Position numbers and translations under genes: made by a program
Source: Burkholderiales bacterium
GTDB lineage: Bacteria > Pseudomonadota > Gammaproteobacteria > Burkholderiales > Burkholderiaceae_C
Assembly (NCBI GenBank): GCA_016192425.1
Contig: JACPUE010000066.1
Coordinates: 99,306 to 163,305 of the forward strand
Direction of reading: 5' to 3'
DNA: 64,000 nucleotides
Notes under the pieces: generated by a model
The model's database searches: none
Told to the model about the DNA's origin: nothing
The model's input: only the letters and a program-made list of their open reading frames with translations
In this document: positions 27,386 to 38,644 of the stretch, piece by piece
Layout: each line of letters starts with the position of its first letter
Numbering within the stretch: position 1 is the stretch's first letter

Positions 27386-28450
27386 TCAGGTGGTCTTGGC
27401 CTGTCGTTCCACCAGGCGCGGAAGGTCGCGTACCACTTCGATCATGTACCAGGCAGGCAGCGTTTGTCCGGACTCTTCGGCCACGGCAATTTGGGCCATC
27501 TCCAGGCTGATCTGGGCCAAGTCTTTTAACATGGCTTTGGATCGGTGTACCAGTGCCTGTAGCTCGCCGGTGCTCGTGTTCTTGTCCCGCGGCAGGGCCT
27601 TGAGCAGCCGGGCACGAAACGCCTGTGCCAAGAAGTACAGCACGTCGCGGTCCTCGGGTGCGTGGGGCCAGCGGGCATCGCCCTTGAAAATGGCTTCCAG
27701 ACGGTGCCGGTCTGCCGCCAGCTTGCCAAAGGCTTTGAACTGCGCTGCATGCTGGGGCGTGAGGCAGCCATGGGCCATGGCTTCCACCATCGAGGTGGGT
27801 GGCGCGTCGCCAAACGCATGCAGCGCATCGCTGAGCATGTGCCACGAGCGAGGCGTGGAAAACGGTTCCTCATGCTTGGGCGGAGCGCTCCACAGGTGAT
27901 CCGGGCGCTGCTGCAGGTACTCCAGCACCATGGGATGGATGGCGTTGGCCGTGGCCCAGTTCAGCCATTCCGAGGCCGATACCTTCATGTGCACATGCAC
28001 CATGCGGTTCATCAATGCCGACGACATGGGTTTGACGATAGCGGAGTCTTGCGCCCGGTTGCCTGCACCGATCACGATAGAGCCTTCAGGCAGCGTGTAT
28101 TCGCCCACGCGGCGGTCATGAATCAGGCTATAGAAAGCCTTTTGCACATCCTGGGAGCATGCGTTGAGCTCGTCTAGAAAGATGCAGTAAGGCTCCTTGC
28201 GCGCAATCATGGCGGGTGGGCAAAAGCGGCTCACGCCGTCGAGGATCTGGGGCACGCCCATCAGATCCTCAGGGGCCAACTGGCTTCCCAGCAGGGAGAC
28301 ACACTCCAGCCCTACGCTGCGCGCGAACTGCTCTACCAGAGCCGACTTGCCAACGCCTGGAGGGCCCCAGATGAATACGGGGCGGGTGATGGCAACGTTC
28401 AGCAGGAATTCGGTGAGCTGCGAAGGCGAAAGCGCGTGGACGGTTTGCAT
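27386..28450 (-). CDS. MoxR-like AAA+ ATPase
   Basis: Walker A GPPGVGKS. Walker B IFLDELN. Confidence 0.8.
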   Translation of the reverse strand: MQTVHALSPSQLTEFLLNVAITRPVFIWGPPGVGKSALVEQFARSVGLECVSLLGSQLAPEDLMGVPQILDGVSRFCPPAMIARKEPYCIFLDELNACSQDVQKAFYSLIHDRRVGEYTLPEGSIVIGAGNRAQDSAIVKPMSSALMNRMVHVHMKVSASEWLNWATANAIHPMVLEYLQQRPDHLWSAPPKHEEPFSTPRSWHMLSDALHAFGDAPPTSMVEAMAHGCLTPQHAAQFKAFGKLAADRHRLEAIFKGDARWPHAPEDRDVLYFLAQAFRARLLKALPRDKNTSTGELQALVHRSKAMLKDLAQISLEMAQIAVAEESGQTLPAWYMIEVVRDLPRLVERQAKTT

Positions 28451-28481
28451 GATGTTCTTGTCGTTATTTCGGTGAATGTCG

Positions 28482-29312
28482 TCAGCGGTGGTAGCGCAGC
28501 ACAGTGTCGTGCAACAGCGCATCCAGCGTGGCGTGACTGGGTACGGGCAGTGGCTGCACAGGCTCGGCCGCATTGCGGGCCAGCTCGGCTTCGATAAAGG
28601 CATGGATGCCGGACCAGCGGGGGCTGGTGGCAGCCTCGTCGGCGCGCATCTTTATCTCCAGCAGTGCGTTGATCTCATCGACCAGCGCAGCGTCGTGCAC
28701 GGGGTGCAGCGTGTGCTGGGCCAGCTCGGCAAAGCGCATGGGCGGCACGCCGGGTTGCGTGCGGATCCAGCGTGCGGCCAGCAGCGGGCGCAGCACGTAC
28801 AAGTACTTTTTGTAGCGCACCTCGTCAGCTTGCAAATGCTCGCGGAAGTTCTTCTTGGCCATGGCCGCGTAGTGGTGCCAGCCCTTGGCGTTGGAGAACA
28901 CCTGCGCCGCCAGCGTGCGGAACTGCGCCATCGTGTCACCCTCTTCGCGGTACACGATGGGCGAGCCCAGCCATTCGAGCAGCGTGGGGTTGGATTCGCG
29001 CAGCAGCCCCAGCGCCTTGCGCAGGTCCCAACCGTTCACATCCAGGTCCCCACTGATTGGCAGCTCGATCACATCACGCCCCGGCGCAATGGTCAGGTAC
29101 CAGGGCAGCCGGTGCACGTAGATAAAGCGCACGTCGTAGTCGCTGTCGGGTGAGGCAAAGCCCCAGCCCCGGCTGCCAGATTCGCAGGCGAAGAGGACTG
29201 TCACGCCGTGCGTGGACTCGATGCGCTGCAGCTCCTGCATCACCTGTGCGCGCATGTGGGGCTCCACCGGGTGGGAGGAGCGCAGCATTTCCTGTTGGTC
29301 TGTTTTTTGCAT
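28482..29312 (-). CDS. DNA polymerase beta-superfamily nucleotidyltransferase of the RNA-repair-associated family
   Basis: GS…D.D motif (ACESGSRGWGFASPDSDYDVRF). Confidence 0.65.
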   Translation of the reverse strand: MQKTDQQEMLRSSHPVEPHMRAQVMQELQRIESTHGVTVLFACESGSRGWGFASPDSDYDVRFIYVHRLPWYLTIAPGRDVIELPISGDLDVNGWDLRKALGLLRESNPTLLEWLGSPIVYREEGDTMAQFRTLAAQVFSNAKGWHHYAAMAKKNFREHLQADEVRYKKYLYVLRPLLAARWIRTQPGVPPMRFAELAQHTLHPVHDAALVDEINALLEIKMRADEAATSPRWSGIHAFIEAELARNAAEPVQPLPVPSHATLDALLHDTVLRYHR

Positions 29313-29317
29313 AAAAT

Positions 29318-29365
29318 GAGCTGTATCGCTTGTTGGATAAGCGCTTGAAGCTATCAAAAGTGTAG
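29318..29365. repeat. AT-rich motif, inverted pair (intergenic, between rtcB and the nucleotidyltransferase gene)
   Basis: GAGCTGTATCGCTT-GTTGG-ATAAGCGCTTGAAGCTATCAAAAG. Confidence 0.7.
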
Positions 29366-29408
29366 TGAGCCAATAGTGCGGTGCTGTCACCAGCGCCGCA
29401 CAGGGCGG

Positions 29409-30632
<1,224 letters not shown>

Positions 30633-30661
30633 ATCGTTTTTTCGTTCTTTCGTTTTTTTGT

Positions 30662-31402
30662 TCATTGAACCATTCCGCGCGCTGCGGCCTGGGCGTAGGT
30701 TTTCAGTTCATCGTCGTTCTTCACATTCCGGATGAAGGCATCCATGCGTGCCTGCAGTTCACCAGGGCGGTTCAGGTGCACTCCCTCGTGCCCGATCCCA
30801 TGCAACGCCGATACCTGTGCTTCGCGCCAAGGCATGGCCAGCATTGCGCAGAACACCTGCCACATTGCGTCGCGCCATTCGGGGATGTGCTTGGCATTCC
30901 AGAACGTGGGCCACACGTCAAACCACATGTAGCTCACGAAGTACAGCCGATCGCTTCGGCTTCCGATGGTGTTCGGCGCGGTGTCCAGGCGCGGGCCCAG
31001 GCAGTCGCGCCATAAAGTGGGCAGGGCCTGCACCATGCGCATCGCGTCGGCCAGGGGCACGGAAGGGTCGTTCACCATGTGCGGGATGTCTCCCGCGTTG
31101 TTGCTCATCACATGGTTCAGGCCCATGCCGACCTGATCGTCGCTGTAAGGCGCCAGGTCCGTTCCCGCATTGGCGAACAGCACGGTCTGGACGTGCGTCC
31201 ATTGCAGCGGCGTGGCTTCGAACTCCGGCTCGTCGATCAGCCAATACCACTCCTGCCCGCTCTTGTCGGGCACGGGGCGGTCGAACAGGTAGCGCAGGGC
31301 CGCGCTGTAGACCGCTGGATCCAGGCCGACAGATGCGCACGTGGCGGGTGTGGTGTCCCGCTGCAAACGCTTTTCTCTTGCAGTTGGTTTTTTGTTCTTC
31401 AT
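30662..31402 (-). CDS. hypothetical Trp-rich protein; no recognisable family
   Basis: 246-aa ORF directly upstream of rtcB on the same strand. Coding-like codon usage. Confidence 0.5.
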   Translation of the reverse strand: MKNKKPTAREKRLQRDTTPATCASVGLDPAVYSAALRYLFDRPVPDKSGQEWYWLIDEPEFEATPLQWTHVQTVLFANAGTDLAPYSDDQVGMGLNHVMSNNAGDIPHMVNDPSVPLADAMRMVQALPTLWRDCLGPRLDTAPNTIGSRSDRLYFVSYMWFDVWPTFWNAKHIPEWRDAMWQVFCAMLAMPWREAQVSALHGIGHEGVHLNRPGELQARMDAFIRNVKNDDELKTYAQAAARGMVQ

Positions 31403-31429
31403 GGCAGTTCTCTCTGCGTTTGTTTTTGC

Positions 31430-32572
31430 TCAGCGCATTTTCACCAGGCCATTGAGCACCTGATCCAGGCCGCCAAACACCGAGATCTTGTCGATCCGCT
31501 CGGCCACGCGCTCCAGCGTCTCCAGCTCCTTCATACGCAGGGCGACGGGGTTGTCTTCCATCACCTTGGCGGTGTTGAGCAGCGAGCGCGTGGCGGCGGT
31601 TTCCTCGCGGCGGCGGATCACGTTGGCCTCGGCCTGTTTCTGGGCCTGCACCACCTGGGTCAGGATGGTTTTCATCTCGCCGGGCAGCACGATGTCCTTC
31701 ACGCCCACGCTCTCCAGCTGCATGCCATAGGGCTGCAGCTTGGCGGCCATGTGCGCGGTCACCACCTCGTCGATCACCGTCTTGTTCTCCAGCAACTCAT
31801 CAAGCGTGCGGGTGCCCACGGCGGCGCGCAGCGCAAACTGCAGCTCGCGGTAGAGGTGGTCGGCAGGCTTTTGCAATTGGGCAAAGGCGCGCAGCACATC
31901 GGTGTAGCGGTAGGTGGCGCACAGGTTCAGGCGCAGGCTTACCTTGTCGCGGGTCATGATGTCCTGGCCCGATACCTCTACGGCTTGCAGGCGCAGATCC
32001 ACCAGCTCCACGGCGACGGTGCGGCCGTACTTCCAGAAGGCGTAGGTGCCTGCGGTCAGCAGGCGCTCGACCTTGCCGTCCACCGTCAGCAGCGCGCACT
32101 GGCCTTCGGGCACTTGCACCTGCAGCACGCCGGTCAGGCCCGTCACCGCACGCTGGCGCAGTTGGGTTTGGGTCAGGCGCGCCACCAGGTCGGCGGGCAG
32201 TTCGGCGCCCGCTTGCAGGTCCACCACCTGGACGGTCACCTGGACCAGGCCCTTCCAGTACAGGCGGCGGGTGCCAGGGGGCAGGATTTCCACCAGCACA
32301 CCGTTCTCGCTGCGCAGGCCCACTTCGGTTTCCGACAGATTCACCTGCACAAACTCGGCAGCCACTACGGCGGGCTCCTGCGCCATCAGGTACTCGGCCA
32401 GGCCGTGGGTGAAGGCGGGTTGTTCCAGGGCGAAAGTCTCCGCACGCAACTGATCCATGCCTGCAAACAGCCAGTAGGTGCCGCTGTGCAGCACGCGGTC
32501 AAAGCTGCCATTGCGCAGCAGCAGGGCGCGTTCGTTCTTTTTCACCGTGGTGCGTTGGAACAACTTCAGCAT
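31430..32572 (-). CDS. SPFH/Band-7 (stomatin-like) domain protein with a long N-terminal extension
   Basis: C-terminal SPFH signature …GVKDIVLPGEMKTILTQVVQAQKQAEANVIRRREETAATRSL…. Confidence 0.7.
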   Translation of the reverse strand: MLKLFQRTTVKKNERALLLRNGSFDRVLHSGTYWLFAGMDQLRAETFALEQPAFTHGLAEYLMAQEPAVVAAEFVQVNLSETEVGLRSENGVLVEILPPGTRRLYWKGLVQVTVQVVDLQAGAELPADLVARLTQTQLRQRAVTGLTGVLQVQVPEGQCALLTVDGKVERLLTAGTYAFWKYGRTVAVELVDLRLQAVEVSGQDIMTRDKVSLRLNLCATYRYTDVLRAFAQLQKPADHLYRELQFALRAAVGTRTLDELLENKTVIDEVVTAHMAAKLQPYGMQLESVGVKDIVLPGEMKTILTQVVQAQKQAEANVIRRREETAATRSLLNTAKVMEDNPVALRMKELETLERVAERIDKISVFGGLDQVLNGLVKMR

Positions 32573-32786
32573 TTTGTTTTCCTCTTTCTTCTTCGTTGTC
32601 GTATCGGGTTGCCGTTACAGCGATGGCGAGGTGCCAGGGGGCGCAGCCAGGGCCCTGCAGTGCGCCGTGGTTGCTGCCCCAATCCCCAGCGGGAAGGGCG
32701 GCAGCGTGGCTGGCTGCGGGTGCAGGCTGTGCCGGGTGCTGGCACAAACCGCCACCGGCTGACGGGGCGGGGCCTTGCGGCGGCGT

Positions 32787-32822
32787 CCAAAAAAACGCAA
32801 CCCTGGGGCCGCTCCCCGCGTT
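32787..32822 (-). terminator. rho-independent terminator / attenuator between the ncRNA and the rtc operon
   Basis: On the minus strand: AACGC-GGGGAGCGGCCCC-…GCGTT followed by TTTTTTT. Confidence 0.55.
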
Positions 32823-33125
32823 CGGCGGGTGGTCTTTCGACCGGTACTTCCAATCAAGGTCTTGCGACCGTGGGCAGGAATCGAACCTGCGACAGACCCC
32901 TTGCGGGGGTTGCTCTACCAGACTGAGCTACCAGTGGTGACACGCCTGGAGTCGCACCGGGCACGTCCTTTCGGAGTGGCTACTGCAGCCGTGCCGTTAT
33001 CCAGCGCTTGCGGTGTGCGGCATGCAGGGCATCGACAGGGACCGAAGGCCCCGGACTTCCGGCACCGGCGGGGCGGACTTCTGTCCCAACCCCGGCCTGT
33101 GAGCGGTCACCGCTTGCGCTGGATG
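32823..33125 (-). ncRNA. Y-RNA (YrlA)-like non-coding RNA containing a tRNA-like module, transcribed from a sigma-54 promoter
   Basis: No credible ORF. GC-rich and highly structured. Contains a canonical D-arm and T-arm (see the 32868–32945 feature). Confidence 0.4.
32868..32945 (-). other. tRNA-like module (canonical D-arm and T-arm, non-canonical anticodon region, imperfect acceptor pairing)
   Basis: Minus-strand read: …CCACTGG-TA-GCTC-AGTCTGGTA-GAGC-A-ACCCCCGCAAGGGGT-CTGTC-GCAGG-TTCGATT-CCTGC-CCACGGT…. Confidence 0.5.
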
Positions 33126-33136
33126 CCTTGTCTATT

Positions 33137-33152
33137 GCCAGATGCGTGCCAG
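33137..33152 (-). promoter_or_regulatory. sigma-54 (-24/-12) promoter
   Basis: Minus-strand sequence TGGCACGCATCTGGCA versus consensus TGGCACG-N4-TTGCA; only one mismatch in the -12 element. Confidence 0.6.
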
Positions 33153-33281
33153 GTGGGTAGCCAGGGTGCCGCGAACTCATAACTTGTTGATTTGTATTGA
33201 TAAAAATCTGAATGCGCGGATGTTTTAGTTCATGGGTTATGAAAATACTAGAATTAAAGCTAAATAAATAGATTGATTTCC

Positions 33282-34910
33282 ATGCGCAAAAACAAGGTGG
33301 TGATCGGCTTTCTGGGCACGCAGCTCGACTCCGGCCGGGGCGCGGGGCGGTGGGAGAAGTGGCGCCCCACCGTGTCGCTGGTGCAGCACGAAGACGTGGT
33401 GATCGATCGGCTGGAGCTGCTCTACACCCTTGCGCACCAAGACCTGGCCCAGCTCGTGCAGGCCGACATGGCCATTGCCTCGCCCGAGACCACGGTGAAC
33501 CTGGTGCCCATGCCCATTGCCGACCCGTGGGACTTTGGCGAGGTGTATGCGCAGCTCTTTGATTGGACGCAGGCCTACCGCTTCGACACCGAGCGCGAGG
33601 AGTACTGGACGCACATCACCACCGGTACGCACGTGGCGCAGATCTGCCTGTTCTTGCTGGTGGAGTCGCGCCGCATTCCGGGCGTGCTGGCGCAGACTTC
33701 GCCCCCGAAGCGCCAGCAGGCGGGCGACCCCGGCAGCATTGCGCTGATCGACCTGGACCTCTCGCGCTACGACGTGATTGCCCAGCGCTTTGGTGCAGAG
33801 CAGCGCGATGCGGTGCAGTTCTTGAAAAGCGGCATCGCCACGCGCAATGCGCGCTTCAACGCCCTGATCGACGAGGTGGAGCGCGTGGCCGTGCGCTCGC
33901 GCGCACCCATCCTGTTCACCGGGCCAACGGGTGCGGGCAAGTCGCACCTGGCGCGGCGCATGTTTGAACTGAAGAAAGCCCGCCACCAGGTGGCAGGCGA
34001 ATTCGTCGAAGTGAACTGCGCCACGCTGCGCGGCGACGGCGCGGCATCCACCCTGTTCGGCCACAAGAAGGGCGCCTTTACGGGTGCGGCGGCCGACCGG
34101 CCCGGCCTGCTGCGTGCGGCGCACCAGGGCGTGCTGTTCCTCGACGAAATAGGCGAGCTGGGCCTGGACGAGCAGGCCATGCTGCTCAAGGCCGTGGAAG
34201 AAAAGCGCTTTTACCCCATGGGCAGTGACCGTGAGGTGGAGAGCGACTTCCAGCTGGTAGCAGGCACCAACCGCGACCTGCGCACCGAAGTCGCGGCCGG
34301 GCGCTTTCGCGAAGACCTGTTTGCGCGCATCAACCTATGGAGCTATGTGCTGCCCGGCCTGGCGCAGCGGCCCGAAGACATTGAGCCGAATGTGGACTAT
34401 CTGCTCACGCGCGTCGCCGCCGAGCTGGGCGGCGCGGTGCGATTCACCAAAGAAGCCAAGGCCGCGTACCTGCGCTTTGCCACGGGCCCCGAGGCCCTGT
34501 GGAGCGGCAACTTTCGCGACCTGGCCGCCAGTGTGACCCGGCTGGCCACGCTGGCAGAAGCAGGCCGCATTGGCGAATCGCTGGTGCAGGCCGAAGTGGC
34601 ACGGCTGCGCTGGCTATGGCAGCCGCAGGGCGCGGGGGCAGCCGCTGCACCCGATGGCGAAGCGGCGCTGCAGGCCTTGGTGGGTGCCGCTGCGTGGGAT
34701 GCCATGGACCTGTTTGACCGCCTGCAACTGCAGGCCGTGGCCGGGGTGTGCCAGCGTGCGCGCAGCCTGTCGGATGCCGGGCGGGTGCTGTTCCAGGCCT
34801 CGCGCACGCAGCGCTCCGTGGTCAACGATGCAGACCGGCTGCGCAAGTACCTGGCGCGGTTTGGGCTGACGTGGGAGCAGGTGGCGCAGTCGATGGCCAC
34901 GGCCGAGTGA
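33282..34910 (+). CDS. rtcR: sigma-54-dependent transcriptional regulator RtcR (CARF–AAA+–HTH)
   Basis: Collinear with E. coli RtcR from MRKNKVVIGFLGT… through …NDADRLRKYLARFGLTWEQV. Carries a GAFTGA motif. Confidence 0.9.
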   Translation: MRKNKVVIGFLGTQLDSGRGAGRWEKWRPTVSLVQHEDVVIDRLELLYTLAHQDLAQLVQADMAIASPETTVNLVPMPIADPWDFGEVYAQLFDWTQAYRFDTEREEYWTHITTGTHVAQICLFLLVESRRIPGVLAQTSPPKRQQAGDPGSIALIDLDLSRYDVIAQRFGAEQRDAVQFLKSGIATRNARFNALIDEVERVAVRSRAPILFTGPTGAGKSHLARRMFELKKARHQVAGEFVEVNCATLRGDGAASTLFGHKKGAFTGAAADRPGLLRAAHQGVLFLDEIGELGLDEQAMLLKAVEEKRFYPMGSDREVESDFQLVAGTNRDLRTEVAAGRFREDLFARINLWSYVLPGLAQRPEDIEPNVDYLLTRVAAELGGAVRFTKEAKAAYLRFATGPEALWSGNFRDLAASVTRLATLAEAGRIGESLVQAEVARLRWLWQPQGAGAAAAPDGEAALQALVGAAAWDAMDLFDRLQLQAVAGVCQRARSLSDAGRVLFQASRTQRSVVNDADRLRKYLARFGLTWEQVAQSMATAE

Positions 34911-35290
34911 GGGAGAGTTGACGAGCGGGGCGGATTTTCGTTAGTATCGCGCCCCTTTTCCATTCTTCCCGACGCCTTTTGAACCGGTGCTCGCGGCGCA
35001 GTCCCCCCCTTTGTTGAATGCGGGTGCGGGCAGCGCAGGGAGGTGTTTGATGCTGAACTTCTTCGCAATCACTGTTTGAAGCCGCGCGCCGGCCACCACT
35101 ACGCCAAGTGTCTTTGCACCGCCCCCACGTGCCATGACGGGAGGGGCTGCTTGCCAGGAGTCTTGACGCAAGTGGCCTGCCATCGCCACCGCAGGCCCCC
35201 TTTGGGAGTGCGCCAGTGGCCGACCAAGAGACGTAGCCGGGCTTCGTGCCGAGCAATGCCCGCGATCCATTCGCGCTGAAGGCCCTGGGG

Positions 35291-35306
35291 TGGCCTGGCT
35301 GATGCA
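35291..35306 (+). promoter_or_regulatory. candidate sigma-54 promoter upstream of the RNA ligase gene
   Basis: TGGCCTGGCTGATGCA has GG and GC at the correct -24/-12 spacing. It lies ~60 bp upstream of the 35369 start. Confidence 0.35.
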
Positions 35307-35368
35307 CGCATGCGTGCGTTAGTGGCATGGCTTGTGATCGAGTCATCCCTGCAAGAAAGGAGTGCATC

Positions 35369-36325
35369 ATGACGACGCGCTCAATCGAACACGTGGCGGC
35401 AATGCACTCGTTGCCGCTGCTGCGCTACCCGCGCACGCCCCATCTGGAGGGCTCGCGTCACCAAAGCGGTGATGCGCCCGATGTACAGCCGCTGGCCCCG
35501 TTGGTGGGACAGCATGCAGTCATCGAGGAAAAAATGGATGGTGCCAACTGTGCGCTGTCGTTCACCGAAGGGGGCGAGCTGTGCCTGCAGTCGCGCGGGC
35601 ACTACCTCACGGGTGGCGCGCGAGAGCGGCAGTTTGCGGCGCTGCACCCTTGGGCACGCGTGCACGAAGCGGCTTTGCTGGCCTGCCTGCAAGACCGCTA
35701 CGTGCTGTATGGCGAGTGGATGTTCGCCAAGCACGCCATGTTTTACGACCGGCTGCCGCACTACCTGCTCGAATTTGACGTGTGGGATCGCGTGGAGCAG
35801 TGCTTTCTGTCCACACCACGGCGCCATGCGTTGCTGGCAGGTTTGCCGGTGGTGTCGGTGCCTGTGGTGTATGAGGGGGCAATGCCTGCACGGGCGGAGT
35901 GGCTGTGGTCGTTGGTGGGGGCTTCGCTGGCGCGCACGCCGCATTGGAACCAGACGCTGGACGATACCGTGCAGCGTCTGCAGTTGCCGCTGGATTTGTG
36001 CCGACAGCAAAGCGATCCGTCGTCACTGGCTGAAGGGCTGTATGTGAAGCTGGAGGATACGCACCAGGTGCTGGCACGGTTCAAGCTCGTGCGCTGGGAC
36101 TTTGTGCAACACATTCTGGATTCGGGCTCGCACCACAGCGAACGGCCCGTGGTACCCAATGCGCTGGCAGCGGGGGTGAACCTGTATGCCCCTACGCTGA
36201 ACGTGCAATGGGCGGACATGGGGCTGCACCGCGTGCTGGGGCTGGAGGCGCTGCAAGCGCACCATGCCCAGTGGGCCGCGGTGCAGCGCACACAGAAAGG
36301 AGGTGCCCTATGGCGCCGCAAATGA
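35369..36325 (+). CDS. ATP-dependent RNA ligase (Rnl family)
   Basis: Nucleotidyltransferase motif I (EEKMDGANCAL). N-terminal YPRTPHL. RBS AAAGGAG. Confidence 0.75.
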   Translation: MTTRSIEHVAAMHSLPLLRYPRTPHLEGSRHQSGDAPDVQPLAPLVGQHAVIEEKMDGANCALSFTEGGELCLQSRGHYLTGGARERQFAALHPWARVHEAALLACLQDRYVLYGEWMFAKHAMFYDRLPHYLLEFDVWDRVEQCFLSTPRRHALLAGLPVVSVPVVYEGAMPARAEWLWSLVGASLARTPHWNQTLDDTVQRLQLPLDLCRQQSDPSSLAEGLYVKLEDTHQVLARFKLVRWDFVQHILDSGSHHSERPVVPNALAAGVNLYAPTLNVQWADMGLHRVLGLEALQAHHAQWAAVQRTQKGGALWRRK

Positions 36326-37500
36326 TGGAGGCAGCGCCGTATGCGGTGCTGCGGGGGCTGGTGCCGGCCCCTCACCAGCTACTGGACTGGGCCGCGTGCT
36401 GCGAGGCTATCGGTGCGCTACGCGCACTAGATACGACGCCGCAGGATCCGGTGCACCATGCCGAAGGAAATGTGGGAACGCACACGCGCTGGGTGCTGGA
36501 GTGCCTGCGCGAGGATGCCTACTTTCAGCAGGCCGCGTCCGATCGGCAGTGGGTGATGTTCATGGCGGCTTTGCTGCACGACATTGCCAAGCCTGCCACC
36601 ACGGTGGTGGACGAGGCCACGGGGCGCATTCGCCAGCCGGGGCATTCCAGCCGTGGGGCAGTGGATGCCCGCGTGCTGCTGTGGGTGGCTGGATGCCCGT
36701 GGGCGCTACGTGAGGCGGTATGCCGCTTGATTGCGGTGCACCAGCAGCCGTTCTTTGTGTGGCACTCGCACCAAGGCGTTGCGCCCGAGTATGTGGTGCG
36801 CAAGCTGTCGTGGGGGGTGTGCTGGGCTGAGTTGCTGGCACTGGTACGGGCCGACATGCGCGGGCGTATTTGCCAGGATCAGCAGCGCCATCTGGACGAC
36901 CTGCAACTGCTGGAAGAGCTGGTGCGCGAAGAAGGCGCGTGGGAGCGGCCTCGCCCCTTTGCAGACGCGCATACCGCGCTGCGTTACTTCAGGGGTACCA
37001 ACCTGTACCCCATGGAGCCGCTGTATGCCAGCCCTGGCTCGACCGTGACGGTGATGTGCGGCCTGCCAGCGGCGGGCAAAAACCACTGGGTGGCCAGGCA
37101 CCGACCGCATTGGGCGGTAGTGTCGTTTGACGACGTGCGCGAGGCATTGGGCCTGGCGCATGGCGACAACGAGGGGCAGGTAGCGCACCACGCACAGGAG
37201 CAGGCGCGCGCCTTGCTGCGGGCGCGGCAGCCGTTTGTGTGGAATGCGACACACCTGTCGCAGTCCATGCGCGACAAGACGCTGGATCTGCTGTATGCCT
37301 ACGATGCGCAGGTCGAGATCGTGCACCTGGAGCAGCCGCTGCCCGAACTGCTGCGGCGCAACCACCGGCGCGACACCACGCTGACCAACGCGGCCCTGCT
37401 GCGCATGCTGCACCGCTGGGAGGCCCCGTGGCCGACCGAGGCGCATCGCGTGGTATACGAGGGAGGCAATACAGCGCCAGCGGGAAATCGCGTACGGTAA
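36310..37500 (+). CDS. HD-domain phosphoesterase fused to a P-loop polynucleotide kinase (HD-Pnk-like end-healing enzyme)
   Basis: HD motifs (…HHAEGNVGTHT…LLHDIAKP…). Walker A GLPAAGKN in the C-terminal half. Overlaps the ligase stop codon. Confidence 0.7.
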   Translation: MAPQMMEAAPYAVLRGLVPAPHQLLDWAACCEAIGALRALDTTPQDPVHHAEGNVGTHTRWVLECLREDAYFQQAASDRQWVMFMAALLHDIAKPATTVVDEATGRIRQPGHSSRGAVDARVLLWVAGCPWALREAVCRLIAVHQQPFFVWHSHQGVAPEYVVRKLSWGVCWAELLALVRADMRGRICQDQQRHLDDLQLLEELVREEGAWERPRPFADAHTALRYFRGTNLYPMEPLYASPGSTVTVMCGLPAAGKNHWVARHRPHWAVVSFDDVREALGLAHGDNEGQVAHHAQEQARALLRARQPFVWNATHLSQSMRDKTLDLLYAYDAQVEIVHLEQPLPELLRRNHRRDTTLTNAALLRMLHRWEAPWPTEAHRVVYEGGNTAPAGNRVR

Positions 37501-37512
37501 CCCCAGCCGTTC

Positions 37513-38124
37513 TCAGGGCTTGCGCGCCGTCAGCAAGAACAAGGGGTACTCCCGCCCATTGCGTTGCTGCACGCGCAGGATTTCGGTAAACGCCACGCCT
37601 TGCAGGCCTGCGTGCTCGGCCAGGGCCTGCAGGGCCTGGGGGGCAAAACCGAAGTGGTGTACGCCCTTGGCTTCGTTGTCGCCGTGGAAGCTCCCGTCTT
37701 CTTCGTACAGGTCGACCAGGGCCACGCGCCCGCCGGGGTGCAGGGCATCGGCAAAGGCCTGCATCAATGCCGCGGTGTCGGCCACATGGTGCAGGGCCAT
37801 GCAGCTGACGATGGCGTGGTAGCGCACAGGCAGGCCCTCAAAAATGTCGCCCTGGTGCGGTGTGATGTTGGCATGGCCCTTGTCGGCCAGCACCTGCAGC
37901 ATGGCGCCAGACATGTCCAGCGCCGTGACCTGCGCCACCAGCGGCGCAATCTGCGTGGATAGCAGGCCGGTGCCCGCGCCAAAGTCCAGCACCTGGTCGG
38001 TGGGGGCCAGGGGCAAATGCGCCAGCAGGCGCGGCGGTACGGCGGCCAGTTGCTGGGACATGGGGCGCTGGTCCCAGTCGCGGGCTGCGGCGTCGAAATG
38101 GGTGGGGGTGGGTGCTGCGGTCAT
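37513..38124 (-). CDS. class I SAM-dependent methyltransferase
   Basis: Motif I VLDFGAGTG. Confidence 0.7.
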   Translation of the reverse strand: MTAAPTPTHFDAAARDWDQRPMSQQLAAVPPRLLAHLPLAPTDQVLDFGAGTGLLSTQIAPLVAQVTALDMSGAMLQVLADKGHANITPHQGDIFEGLPVRYHAIVSCMALHHVADTAALMQAFADALHPGGRVALVDLYEEDGSFHGDNEAKGVHHFGFAPQALQALAEHAGLQGVAFTEILRVQQRNGREYPLFLLTARKP

Positions 38125-38181: not shown

Positions 38182-38644
38182 GAAGCACGCCAGACCGCCG
38201 CTGGTGCAATCTGGGAAACCAGGCACTGGAGGAACGTCCGGACTGCACAGGACAGCGTAGCAGCTAACGGCTGCCCACCGTGAGGTGAGGATCAGAGCAA
38301 CAGAGACGAGTCCGAGCGTGGATGTGCCCATCGGGTGTTCTGCGGTTCGCCAGCGCAAGCTGGCGCGGCTGGCGCAAGCCAGACGGTGACGGGCGAAAGC
38401 CCGGCACGACGCAGCCACCCCGGGTGCGAAGCGCCCGGGGTGAAACGGGCAATCTCTACGCGCAGCAATACCAAGTAGGCCAGCCACGGGAGCAGGGCGA
38501 CCTCTCTCGACCTTGTGGATCCGCAGGGAGAGCTGGCGGGTAGGTAGCACCGAGCCGGGTGGGCGACCCCCGGCCCAGAGTAATGGCGGTCACGCTGCGG
38601 GCAACCGCAGTGCACAGAATCCGGCTTATCGGCGCGCTTCACAC
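38182..38644 (+). ncRNA. rnpB: RNase P RNA (bacterial type A)
   Basis: P4/universal elements are present: GGAGGAACGTCCGGAC…, GGGGTGAAACGGG…, ACAGAATCCGGCTTATCGG. A P1 helix pairs GAAGCACGCC with GGCGCGCTTC. Confidence 0.8.

Follow-up and report, generated by a model that had tools for sequence, protein, structure and literature searches.

A LIG/HD-Pnk end-repair cassette beside rtcR with a putative promoter of its own and a candidate translation-sensing leader

Directly downstream of rtcR, the 64,000-nt stretch of DNA analysed here (the window) carries genes for an RNA-ligase-like protein (LIG) and for a fusion of an HD phosphoesterase with a polynucleotide kinase (HD-Pnk), which raises the question of whether these genes answer to RtcR or to an input of their own. 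A preliminary description of the locus had placed them next to rtcR, which was confirmed, and had proposed that RtcR co-regulates RtcB-type and classical ligase pathways, which was not. RtcR/sigma-54-controlled rtcBA-type operons are found in E. coli and Salmonella (PMC7790460), and the divergent rtcB operon next door in the window (SPFH, RtcB, RlaP, and a MoxR-type ATPase) is such an operon, with a conserved sigma-54 promoter and a tRNA-like RNA in its leader. The cassette is separated from rtcR by a spacer of 458 nt and has, besides rtcR, a convergent methyltransferase gene as neighbour. As argued below, positions 34918-37500 are best read as one self-contained cassette of the LIG/HD-Pnk type, in which two genes serve the repair of RNA (or nucleic-acid) ends.

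33273-34910, + strand: rtcR (RtcR CARF domain, E 2e-80; Sigma54_activat, E 1e-48), directly upstream of the LIG spacer and co-directional
35369-36325, + strand: LIG, ATP-dependent RNA-ligase-like nucleotidyltransferase, 318 aa (PF09414, motifs, AF2 fold)
36310-37500, + strand: HD-Pnk, N-terminal HD phosphoesterase and C-terminal P-loop 5'-OH polynucleotide kinase, 396 aa (Pfam, invariant residues, AF2)

The two enzymes and their likely substrates

The earlier assignment of LIG as a KxDG-type RNA ligase is well founded: the ORF (35327/35369-36325) matches the Pfam family RNA_ligase (PF09414) with an E value of 1.4e-32 over model positions 3-171 of 171, motif I reads EEKMDGAN, and 55 homologues all share K55 (the adenylylation lysine), D57, and G58. 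Candidate motifs Ia, III, IIIa, IV, and V, assigned from order and conservation rather than by residue-level superposition, are likewise invariant or nearly so in these homologues (conserved residues are S75-R76-G77, G115-E116-W117, E135-F136-D137, E222-G223-L224-Y225-x-K227, and K239-x-x-R242), and a loss of motifs III-V is thus not seen. Translation probably begins at ATG 35369, preceded by the Shine-Dalgarno sequence AAAGGAG at 35356-35362. As a PDB sequence search with LIG returned no useful relative, a fold search was used instead; the AF2 model (pLDDT 89) matches RNA-ligase nucleotidyltransferase folds, with the Naegleria RNA ligase (Rnl5), T4 Rnl2, and archaeal Rnl3 as top PDB matches in Foldseek (best E values 1.6e-7 to 1e-5, identity 13-19 %, TM ~0.4 with the catalytic domain alone aligned). 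LIG hence shares its nucleotidyltransferase fold and motif set with Rnl2 (T4 Rnl2) and Rnl5 (Naegleria, Deinococcus). Rnl5, however, has an N-terminal domain, for which LIG leaves no room as its nucleotidyltransferase domain starts near residue 20, and for the last 75 residues of LIG, which are unassigned, no match to the C-terminal domain of Rnl2 was obtained. In the fold search, the flanking domains of LIG matched no characterised Rnl clade (these clades, Rnl1-Rnl6, are told apart by the domain next to the catalytic core).

The proposed fusion of HD and Walker A modules in the second protein likewise holds. Its kinase part matches AAA_33 (E 9e-20) and its HD part gives a weak Pfam match (E 0.0016; 19.1 bits, under the cut-off of 22); H50, H58, the HD dyad H90-D91, H112, and D182 do not vary among Proteobacteria, Planctomycetota, Chloroflexota, and Bacillota, the P-loop G251-x4-G256-K257 is likewise invariant across phyla, and D274, R304, R321, R350, and R354 are conserved. 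A PDB sequence search with HD-Pnk again gave no useful match, and a fold search was used in its place; with the AF2 model (pLDDT 92.5), the kinase domain found mammalian PNKP, the C. thermocellum Pnkp kinase, the Trl1 kinase, PSTK, and T4 Pnk as top structure matches.

HD-Pnk starts at ATG 36310, with the Shine-Dalgarno sequence AAAGGAGG at 36296-36303, and the LIG stop follows at 36323-36325; because the two ORFs thus overlap by 16 nt, they are taken to share one mRNA. The N-terminus (MAP..) is kept in homologues, and the overlap is conserved in relatives, with 4 nt in Variovorax, Comamonas, and Pectobacterium and 16 nt in the Acidovorax-like clade. HD-Pnk follows LIG in 113 of 125 related loci from many phyla, and homologue searches return thousands of LIG/HD-Pnk homologues, again from many phyla. 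With regard to the translational coupling claimed for the pair, the overlap of the ORFs stands, and coupling itself is plausible from the gene arrangement.

Judging from their families, the HD domain would remove 2',3'-cyclic-, 3'-, or 2'-phosphates, the P-loop domain would phosphorylate 5'-OH ends, and LIG, once adenylylated on K55, would be expected to join the healed ends. The same combination of 3'-phosphoesterase, 5'-OH kinase, and ATP-dependent ligase serves 2',3'-cyclic-phosphate/5'-OH breaks in phage T4 Pnkp plus Rnl1 and in bacterial Pnkp/Hen1, and the kinase fold of HD-Pnk matches those of T4 Pnk and C. thermocellum Pnkp. In contrast to these systems, the 3'-healing module of the cassette is neither a DxDxT acid phosphatase nor a calcineurin-type phosphoesterase but an HD domain, the ligase is a protein of its own, and Hen1 is absent from the cassette.

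The closest described counterpart is the cluster of Runella slithyformis, where the ORF of the ligase directly precedes that of HD-Pnk and overlaps it (Munir & Shuman 2017, as described in PMC6097658); compared by description, gene order, overlap, and HD and P-loop kinase domains agree. Runella HD-Pnk has been characterised biochemically, whereas the Runella ligase self-adenylylates but sealed none of the tested 3'-OH/5'-PO4 substrates (PMC6097658). The statement that an Rnl plus HD-Pnk pathway is biochemically characterised in Bacteroidetes accordingly stands for HD-Pnk, and for the ligase it extends to self-adenylylation. The Runella genes are accompanied by Tpt1 and methyltransferase-HIT genes, in contrast to the rtcR and convergent methyltransferase genes of the window, and the available part of PMC6097658 describes no leader or uORF for Runella. 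Proteobacterial ligases (318 aa in the window) are longer than the relatives recovered with a Bacteroidota query, which are mostly ~260 aa; no Runella entry surfaced in this Bacteroidota-seeded homologue search.

It is conceivable that these enzymes act on DNA ends, alone or along with RNA ends, instead of on tRNA or rRNA breaks, in which case 'RNA repair' would be a mislabel. The best structural match of the kinase domain is mammalian PNKP, a DNA repair enzyme, and some sources annotate LIG homologues as 'DNA ligase'. Runella HD-Pnk is also said to dephosphorylate DNA 3'-phosphate ends. The title of the Runella study, as it appears in the reference list of PMC6097658, names a DNA/RNA end-healing enzyme. 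On balance we nevertheless consider this reading improbable, given that the fold of LIG is nearest to RNA ligases (Rnl5, Rnl2, and Rnl3) and its Pfam family is RNA_ligase, that the locus lies beside the RNA-repair genes for RtcR, RtcB, and RlaP, and that a translation-linked leader (see below) better fits an RNA or translation problem.

Promoter and leader RNA

The spacer between rtcR and LIG contains a putative promoter followed by a short upstream ORF (uORF) and a series of predicted RNA structures:

34918-34947, + strand: sigma-70-type promoter, TTGACG-18 nt-TAGTAT, 8 nt past the rtcR stop and followed by a conserved CGCGCC start region
35039-35043, + strand: Shine-Dalgarno sequence of the uORF, GGAGG, 6 nt 5' of its ATG
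35050-35079, + strand: uORF of 9 codons with conserved layout, ATG CTG AAC TTC TTC GCA ATC ACT GTT TGA (MLNFFAITV, then stop)
35077-35096, + strand: 5' strands of the long-range helices, UGAAGCC (P1, contains the uORF stop), then GCCGGCCAC (duplex prediction, lineage conservation)
35122-35146, + strand: GCCAUG-loop hairpin with covarying stems, loop at 35131-35136
35167-35182, + strand: GCAAGUGGCCUGCCA, predicted partner of 35084-35096; its minus strand is a sigma-54-like palindrome
35216-35246, + strand: 3' strand of the long-range helix, GUGGCCG ... GCCGGGCUUCG; the LIG start follows 121 nt further on

The sigma-70-type site is the only promoter-like site within 34800-35500, where shuffles predict 0.1. 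Its -10 box and the CGCGCC block also precede LIG in Variovorax, Pectobacterium, Acidovorax, and metagenome loci, a perfect TTGACA-17-TAnAAT is seen in some of them, and promoter and uORF leader also precede LIG in genomes without a nearby rtcR. Transcription of the cassette thus most likely starts just past rtcR. One might instead suppose that rtcR, LIG, and HD-Pnk form mainly a single mRNA by read-through and that the conserved spacer is only an internal region for processing or translational control; the genes lie on the same strand, only 8 nt lie between the rtcR stop and the -35 box, and a scan of the window found no canonical terminator after rtcR. We regard this as unlikely because the -35/-10 pair persists even in genomes where it follows unrelated genes or a clear terminator (e. 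g., in Variovorax L059), which argues for an autonomous start. Read-through and the leader mechanism discussed below are mutually compatible.

In most of the related leaders listed, a GGAG element is found ~6 nt from the uORF start. Four Acidovorax-like lineages contain 9-codon uORFs with differing peptides, and the in-frame 3' end of the uORF is kept in a fifth (L144, partial contig). Beyond this clade, 76 of 82 other proteobacterial loci show the leader layout, including the uORF, ahead of LIG; these 76 uORFs encode 43 distinct peptides, have 7, 8, or 9 codons with in-frame length changes, start only with GTG, ATG, or TTG, and stop only with TAA, TGA, or TAG. uORF codons show a strong third-position C bias, and Asp, Glu, Gly, Trp, and internal Met are absent. 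Taken together, this conservation suggests that the uORF is translated. A 78-aa ORF in the spacer (35043-35279), longer than the uORF, was also considered and was rejected, as it is broken in relatives while the nucleotide blocks remain conserved.

The best duplex partner of 35077-35096 is 35216-35246 (-23.3 kcal/mol), and the pairing UGAAGCC:GGCUUC is kept in all five lineages. The position of the 3' strand corresponds to that of a conserved ACG-UYGUCGG block in other clades, in which an equivalent 8-bp helix with compensatory changes is found: the helix abutting the stop codon, CCGACGAC:GTCGTCGG, is replaced by CCGACAAC:GTTGTCGG in 19 loci and by CTGACGAN:GTCGTCAG in six. Across 13 leaders, 92.7 % of helix cells are paired, as compared to 25-56 % with slid partners, and the covariation score of 0.135 (0.086 in shuffles) was reached by none of 500 shuffles. 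The 5' strand begins within the uORF stop codon or 0-3 nt past it, and 130-190 nt of structured RNA separate the two strands. Within this stretch, the GCCAUG hairpin occurs with 12 distinct covarying stems and an invariant GCCAUG/U loop, with pairs altered on both sides in both alignments tested. The segment GCAAGUGGCCUGCCA is conserved in all Acidovorax-like lineages and is paired with GCCGGCNAC by RNAalifold. A minus-strand sigma-54-like site at 35182..35167 that would drive an antisense or small RNA was rejected, as the segment is palindromic and pairs with 35084-35096; it is read as RNA structure because a promoter on the minus strand would point back into rtcR.

The whole element always lies directly 5' of LIG in the same orientation, 20-120 nt from the LIG start. 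A U-rich tract follows the 3' strand of the helix in Pectobacterium, L001-3, L083, and L136/139/142; it is absent in the window, unlike in these relatives, and many other clades also lack a terminator-like tract. An Rfam search of the window spacer and ten related loci gave no credible match even at permissive thresholds, and a literature search found no paper describing this leader. A sequence-only HMM built from the leaders of other clades matched neither the window leader nor other phyla, and the membership of the window leader therefore rests on the shared layout, i. e., promoter, uORF with Shine-Dalgarno sequence, stop codon within a helix, and GCCAUG hairpin. Its apparent relatedness to the other leaders is hence architectural, and we propose it as a candidate structured leader RNA without an Rfam entry.

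A possible translation sensor

The account that we hold to be probable, albeit far from certain, is that of a LIG/HD-Pnk repair cassette with its own promoter under the control of a leader that senses translation. The sigma-70-type start would yield a leader of ~420 nt with a translated 9-codon uORF, and the helix carrying the uORF stop would close a structured domain that holds the GCCAUG hairpin. The long-range helix would be kept open by any ribosome positioned at the uORF end or close to it. Upon quick termination and ribosome release, the helix would form and expression of the cassette would be low, either through a terminator at the U-rich tract (in some lineages) or through masking of the LIG ribosome-binding site (in others). 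Stalled or lingering ribosomes, as expected upon tRNA or rRNA damage, would leave the helix open and LIG and HD-Pnk would be made.

Leader-peptide switches that sense ribosome behaviour include those of ermC, the cat/cmlA leaders, tnaC, and the attenuators of amino-acid operons. As in these cases, a short ORF with a Shine-Dalgarno sequence is placed such that the ribosome footprint overlaps a helix strand upstream of the regulated gene. In contrast to them, the uORF comprises only 7-9 codons and contains no obvious regulatory codon run or known arrest motif, the helix is long-range (130-190 nt between its strands), and the regulated genes encode nucleic-acid repair enzymes.

The direction of the switch is a guess because folding with ribosome-sized masks barely alters the accessibility of the LIG start: with masks at the start, middle, or stop of the uORF, it shifts modestly in the Variovorax-type clade and almost not at all in the other three clades (equilibrium folding). 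In some clades, the 3' strand of the helix has an alternative partner in the LIG start region, and such pairing would invert the logic of the switch. Only tentatively may the leader be regarded as sensing, in cis, damage to the translation machinery: ribotoxins, stress, or antibiotics would break tRNAs or rRNA, ribosomes would stall on the uORF or fail to be released, and the cassette would be switched on by the helix being held open.

A different use of the spacer would be to encode a separate small RNA, for example, a decoy or substrate of repair enzymes resembling the Y-RNA-like RNAs of rtc operons, with the mini-ORF being incidental. The strong structure, the conserved hairpin loop, and the tRNA-like RNA elements of the adjoining rtcB operon would fit such an RNA, and the U-rich tracts after the helix in several lineages may end a short transcript; the window and many other clades, however, are without a terminator-like tract. 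RNA structure alone also hardly explains why start, stop, frame, and Shine-Dalgarno spacing of the mini-ORF are held across 43 peptides, nor does it account for an element that is invariably upstream of and co-oriented with LIG, so that we see little prospect for this explanation.

RtcR and the neighbourhood of the cassette

There remains the proposal that RtcR drives LIG and HD-Pnk from a sigma-54-like -24/-12 element and thereby co-regulates both ligase pathways. Two sites have to be compared:

35291-35306, + strand: TGGCCTGGCTGATGCA, the earlier candidate -24/-12 string, judged a chance match; overlaps the 5' arm of a hairpin
33136-33151, - strand: TGGCACGCATCTGGCA, sigma-54 promoter of the divergent rtcB operon, the sole window match with at most one consensus mismatch

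The first site lies ~60 nt 5' of the LIG start on the correct strand, its GG/GC spacing is correct, and sigma-54 promoters may be degenerate. Of the 12 specified bases of TGGCACG-N4-TTGCW, however, it fails to match three, and it is absent from the window matches with up to two mismatches to the consensus. The window contains 19 copies of the core TGGC-N8-TGCW as compared to an expectation of 16.1 +/- 4.2 (pattern counts with shuffles). By an approximate weight matrix made for the present analysis, TGGCCTGGCTGATGCA ranks 12th of ~128,000 window positions, most of the better-scoring sites being intragenic. GG and GC are retained in the closest relative (L144) only; at the aligned positions of the other synteny-sharing lineages (L001-3/146-149, L150/151, and L152), GG and/or GC are lost. 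The site furthermore extends into the 5' arm of a hairpin specific to the lineage (35299-35322), in which wobble-to-Watson-Crick changes set the window apart from L144. The promoter of the rtcB operon, by comparison, is conserved in L001-L003.

rtcR adjoins LIG in all Acidovorax-like lineages whose contig reaches upstream, which could be taken to favour common control. Outside this clade, an RtcR CARF domain was found near LIG in none of 57 proteobacterial and none of 48 other-phylum loci whose upstream sequence exceeds 1.5 kb (105 in total), and the same cassette and leader are present without rtcR in more than 80 loci. The rtcR neighbourhood is specific to the Acidovorax-like clade. Unlike the RtcR/sigma-54 operons, LIG/HD-Pnk is without a conserved sigma-54 promoter and resides mostly in genomes without a nearby rtcR. 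With three mismatches, a core at chance frequency, loss in three of four synteny-sharing lineages, and a conserved promoter and leader of its own in the spacer, TGGCCTGGCTGATGCA was rejected as a sigma-54 promoter, and RtcR control of the cassette through it appears very unlikely. The adjacency of rtcR is best read as a clustering of repair functions in the Acidovorax-like lineage, not as common sigma-54 control, which corrects the attractive, but unsupported idea that RtcR co-regulates both ligase pathways.

The cassette is widespread, and its ligase has resisted assay (PMC6097658). The conserved and easily mutated mini-ORF leader offers a direct experimental handle on it, as whatever stalls uORF ribosomes or remodels the leader RNA would be the cell's call for repair and would point to the substrate. 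If the leader is indeed a damage sensor, it would represent the first known regulatory input for the orphan LIG/HD-Pnk cassette, and a leader class missing from Rfam. The repair island of the Acidovorax-like lineages would then possess two independent sensors, with RtcR reading broken tRNA ends and the uORF reading stalled ribosomes.

The ligase and healing enzymes

36325 is the last base of LIG, the RNA-ligase-like gene, and lies within the start of its partner HD-Pnk:

35369-36325, plus strand: LIG, RNA-ligase-like nucleotidyltransferase
36310-37500, plus strand: HD-Pnk, HD-phosphoesterase/P-loop kinase

The Pfam RNA_ligase family (PF09414) covers LIG end to end (E 1.4e-32), and the best start is ATG 35369, with AAAGGAG six bases upstream; no ribosome-binding site precedes the other candidate, ATG 35327. 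In 55 homologues (54-91% identity), K55 of EEKMDGAN is kept together with S75-R76-G77 (Ia), G115-E116-W117 (III), E135-F136-D137 (IIIa), E222-G223-L224-Y225-x-K227 (IV) and K239-x-x-R242 (V), where motifs Ia, III, IIIa, IV and V were assigned through order and conservation. The structures nearest to the AlphaFold model (pLDDT 89) are the nucleotidyltransferase domains of Naegleria RNA ligase (Rnl5), T4 Rnl2 and archaeal Rnl3, at 13-19% identity and a TM of ~0.4, with the alignment restricted to the catalytic core. Since the motif residues, III-V included, are conserved and the fold matches, the ligase call of the preliminary description stands; LIG itself cannot be placed in any named Rnl clade.

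HD-Pnk starts 16 nt ahead of the LIG stop, and its ATG 36310 has AAAGGAGG six bases upstream. The protein combines a P-loop kinase (AAA_33, E 9e-20) with a weak HD match (E 0.0016, under the Pfam cut-off). In an alignment of four phyla, residues H50, H58, H90-D91, H112 and D182 of the HD domain and G251..G256-K257, D274, R304, R321 and R354 of the kinase are invariant, and R350 is nearly so. In the model (pLDDT 92.5), the kinase domain comes nearest to mammalian PNKP, the C. thermocellum Pnkp kinase (TM 0.7 on target), the fungal Trl1 kinase, PSTK and T4 Pnk. Its architecture is that of HD-Pnk. HD-Pnk lies within 1.5 kb downstream of LIG in 113 of the 125 related loci with enough downstream sequence (Proteobacteria, Planctomycetota, Chloroflexota, Bacillota and others), and the pair sits amid unrelated genes in Variovorax, Comamonas and Pectobacterium genomes.

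A cluster of the same gene order, with overlapping ORFs, stands beside Tpt1 (AEI48611) and a methyltransferase-HIT gene in Runella slithyformis; its ligase is reported to make ligase-AMP but to have failed to seal any 3'-OH/5'-PO4 substrate on which it was tested (PMC6097658). "Complete and biochemically characterised" is therefore an overstatement for the pathway, of which healing is the step demonstrated, in one member of the family. Homology to the characterised Runella enzyme rests on architecture, and LIG and HD-Pnk are a further member of the already known LIG/HD-Pnk type. By analogy, the pair would work like the heal-and-seal systems T4 Pnkp+Rnl1 and Pnkp/Hen1, except that its 3'-healing module is an HD domain and its ligase is unclassified.

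Two related proteobacterial loci carry a 150-160-aa ORF with CxxC...HH...CxxxH spacing between LIG and HD-Pnk (L070 2341-2823, L073 6238-6693), and a similar gap is seen in L066, L076, L084, L094 and L130. This ORF, which has a weak Pfam HNH match (E 0.02) and is absent from the window, may be a third cassette component.

RtcR, the rtcB operon and the predicted promoter of the cassette

The neighbourhood upstream of LIG, and one RNA gene beyond HD-Pnk, comprise the following features:

27386-28450/28603, minus strand: MoxR-type AAA ATPase, RtcR-side operon
28482-29390, minus strand: RlaP nucleotidyltransferase, same operon
29409-30665, minus strand: RtcB, same operon
30662-31402, minus strand: unassigned 246-aa ORF, same operon
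31430-32572, minus strand: SPFH/Band-7, same operon
32866-32938, minus strand: tRNA-like element (ARAGORN "tRNA-Cys"; Rfam tRNA 37 bits, partial)
33273-34910, plus strand: rtcR (RtcR CARF domain E 2e-80; sigma-54 interaction domain E 1e-48)
34918-34947, plus strand: sigma-70-type promoter TTGACG-18-TAGTAT, eight bases past the rtcR stop
38182-38644, plus strand: RNase P RNA, bacterial class A (Rfam 165 bits)

Between rtcR and the two overlapping ORFs lies a spacer of 458 nt, in which a sigma-54 -24/-12 element at 35291-35306 had been proposed to drive LIG and HD-Pnk, with RtcR co-regulating both ligase pathways. The string is present with correct GG/GC spacing and has three mismatches to TGGCACG-N4-TTGCW; it is missing from the 18 window matches with at most two mismatches (23 expected), and the window has 19 copies of the core TGGC-N8-TGCW, where shuffles give 16.1 +/- 4.2. 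The weight matrix for sigma-54 was built on an approximate consensus, and the pattern counts (core, <=1 and <=2 mismatches) are independent of it. GG and GC are kept only in the closest relative, L144, and are lost in the three other lineages with the rtcR-LIG arrangement. Around the string, window and L144 differ by changes of G-U to G-C pairs in a hairpin at 35299-35322, which is the behaviour of an RNA structure and not of a promoter. At chance-level core frequency, with three mismatches and conserved no further than L144, the element is not upheld.

The sole window match with <=1 mismatch is TGGCACGCATCTGGCA (33136-33151, minus strand). It precedes the divergent SPFH-RtcB-RlaP-MoxR operon, and three Acidovorax genomes of the same synteny conserve it. 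Moreover, rtcR adjoins LIG only in the window's own Acidovorax-like clade (window, L001-3, L146, L148, L149, L151, L152), and the RtcR CARF domain was found in none of the 57 proteobacterial and 48 other-phylum loci outside it, each with >1.5 kb of upstream sequence. As the conserved sigma-54 promoter serves the rtcB operon and the rtcR adjacency is clade-limited, co-regulation of both pathways by RtcR finds no support; read-through from rtcR is a possible additional source of transcript.

The LIG cassette is shown to have an autonomous, conserved predicted promoter, the sigma-70-type site at 34918-34947, which is the single such site in 34800-35500 (0.1 expected from shuffles). Its -10 box and the subsequent CGCGCC recur ahead of LIG in beta- and gammaproteobacteria, and some related loci have a perfect TTGACA-17-TAnAAT. 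GGGGCG (34926-34931) and CGCCCC (34950-34955, then UUUUCC) form a potential hairpin around the -10 box, either a coincidence or perhaps a weak terminator of rtcR that overlaps the promoter. L001-3 have CCGCGCACAGCGCGG after rtcR instead, and the hairpin is not seen there in this form.

No RtcA was seen in the stretch examined. For the 246-aa ORF of the operon at 27386-32572, Pfam and NCBIfam gave no match; L002 has this ORF, and tblastn did not match it in either L001 or L003. A leader of ~550 nt (32573-33135, minus strand) separates the sigma-54 promoter from the SPFH gene, and the SPFH-rtcR spacer averages 85% column identity across Acidovorax genomes. In the tRNA-like element, a GNRA-tetraloop-capped stem replaces the normal anticodon arm and changes compensatorily (window CCCC-GCAA-GGGG, relatives CCGCC-GAAA-GGCGG), and a second T-arm-like GGTKCGACTCC lies near 32944-32962; the element looks like a Y-RNA/YrlA-style tRNA mimic in an rtcB operon without Ro protein. 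The RNase P RNA gene lies just downstream of the methyltransferase gene at 37513-38100 (convergent, minus strand), and the several long mechanical ORFs that overlap the RNA are spurious.

In four metagenome loci, LIG/HD-Pnk has beside it a distant paralogue of RtcB, 28-31% identical to the RtcB of the window:

L071 3167-4480, L075 3129-4394 and L140 3174-4205, opposite strand: upstream of LIG/HD-Pnk
L111 6993-8258, opposite strand: just downstream of HD-Pnk

No rtcR occurs in the available sequence of these four, and the arrangement hints at a recurrent, RtcR-free functional link between the RtcB-type and LIG/HD-Pnk ligase systems.

The mini-ORF and the leader RNA

Two elements of the leader ahead of LIG are placed as follows:

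35050-35079, plus strand: uORF, ATG CTG AAC TTC TTC GCA ATC ACT GTT TGA, with GGAGG six bases upstream
35122-35146: GCCAUG hairpin of the window leader

The Shine-Dalgarno site (SD) of the uORF, GGAGG, lies ~95 nt downstream of the sigma-70-type promoter. Full nine-codon uORFs are found in four Acidovorax-like lineages (MLNFFAITV, MHTFFFITC, MSNVFFFTT, MLTLFLFTV); the fifth, L144, has the in-frame 3' end only, as the contig end cuts the rest. An equivalent is present in 76 of 82 other proteobacterial loci, the six lacking it being mostly short or truncated contigs. These 76 encode 43 distinct peptides, of 7, 8 and 9 codons in 3, 42 and 31 loci, always with a GTG, ATG or TTG start, only TAA, TGA or TAG at the stop position and an SD ~six bases ahead of the start. 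Conserved frame, start and stop combined with peptide drift are the signature of a translated regulatory mini-ORF, which the uORF would be rather than a functional peptide or purely structural RNA. Across the window and ~80 loci, 84% of the codons are NNC and only 4% end in G, a pyrimidine-rich stretch; the peptides are devoid of Asp, Glu, Gly, Trp and internal Met, and no run of regulatory codons was seen in the uORFs.

In most clades, the eight bases directly past the uORF stop, CCGACGAC, pair with GTCGTCGG 20-60 nt ahead of the LIG start, and this helix is preserved by two independent double changes, CCGACAAC:GTTGTCGG (19 loci) and CTGACGAN:GTCGTCAG (6 loci). In a four-helix model of 13 diverse leaders, 92.7% of cells are paired, compared with 25-56% with slid partners; the model scores 0.135 for covariation, and shuffles score 0.086 (0/500 reach 0.135). 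The hairpin with the invariant GCCAUG loop has changes on both sides at every pair in these 13 leaders and is seen with 12 different stems. The leader of the window clade is of other sequence and the same layout: UGAAGCC (stop codon included) pairs with GGCUUC(G) at 35241-35246 in 5/5 lineages, and GCCGGCCAC pairs with GUGGCC(UGCC). By this pairing, the conserved minus-strand palindrome at 35167-35182, sigma-54-like in sequence, is accounted for as a helix strand. The Acidovorax-like leaders resemble those of other clades in architecture, without detectable sequence similarity, and related metagenome contigs are often short. Rfam holds no family matching the leader, permissive thresholds included, and a literature search found no description of it.

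CUUCUUC of the Acidovorax-like uORF complements GAAGGAG, the Shine-Dalgarno region of LIG. RNAalifold pairs the uORF 5' half (AUG...CUUCUUC) with the LIG SD/AUG region in the window clade, which is only a possibility because both sides are invariant. Additionally, L060, L062, L064, L066, L070, L072, L074 and L094 share a conserved CU-rich block, CCGCUUCCYCC...CGCGAC, placed after the GCCAUG hairpin and before the helix 3' strand (columns ~155-175 of A7, an alignment of related leaders); the block is similar to the 16S rRNA anti-Shine-Dalgarno end and might mask an SD.

A putative ribosome-dependent switch

Comparison of the leaders shows the predicted uORF to be conserved and its stop codon to lie inside, or directly abut, one strand of the conserved long-range helix. 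A ribosome with this stop in the A site would cover the helix 5' strand, so that the helix would form only after its departure. On the preferred model, quick termination on the uORF would allow the helix to form and keep expression low, and stalled or lingering ribosomes would leave the helix open, so that the repair genes are switched on. Directly past the helix 3' strand, a U-rich tract is found in Pectobacterium (CCCUCUUUUUUU), L001-3 (GGGCUUCUUCGUUUUUU), L083 and L136/139/142, as expected were the helix an attenuator stem.

The directional claim is weakened by three observations: the window leader has no U tract; in the Variovorax-type and VSCRIAAL-type clades the helix 3' strand can alternatively pair with the LIG start region, by which the switch logic would invert; and, on equilibrium folding with ribosome-sized masks, start-site accessibility shifts only modestly in the Variovorax-type clade and hardly elsewhere. 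All statements on expression derive from sequence conservation; on this footing, leader and uORF quite probably form a regulatory device, and the direction and signal proposed for the switch stay tentative and somewhat doubtful.

The control region would work like the leader-peptide switches of ermC, cat and tnaC and amino-acid attenuators. It differs from them in that the leader ORF is unusually short, the long-range helix encloses a structured domain, a GCCAUG loop is conserved and the genes concerned are repair enzymes. Control through the uORF and its leader is more testable than co-regulation by RtcR, and probably of more interest to those who work on this orphan repair system.
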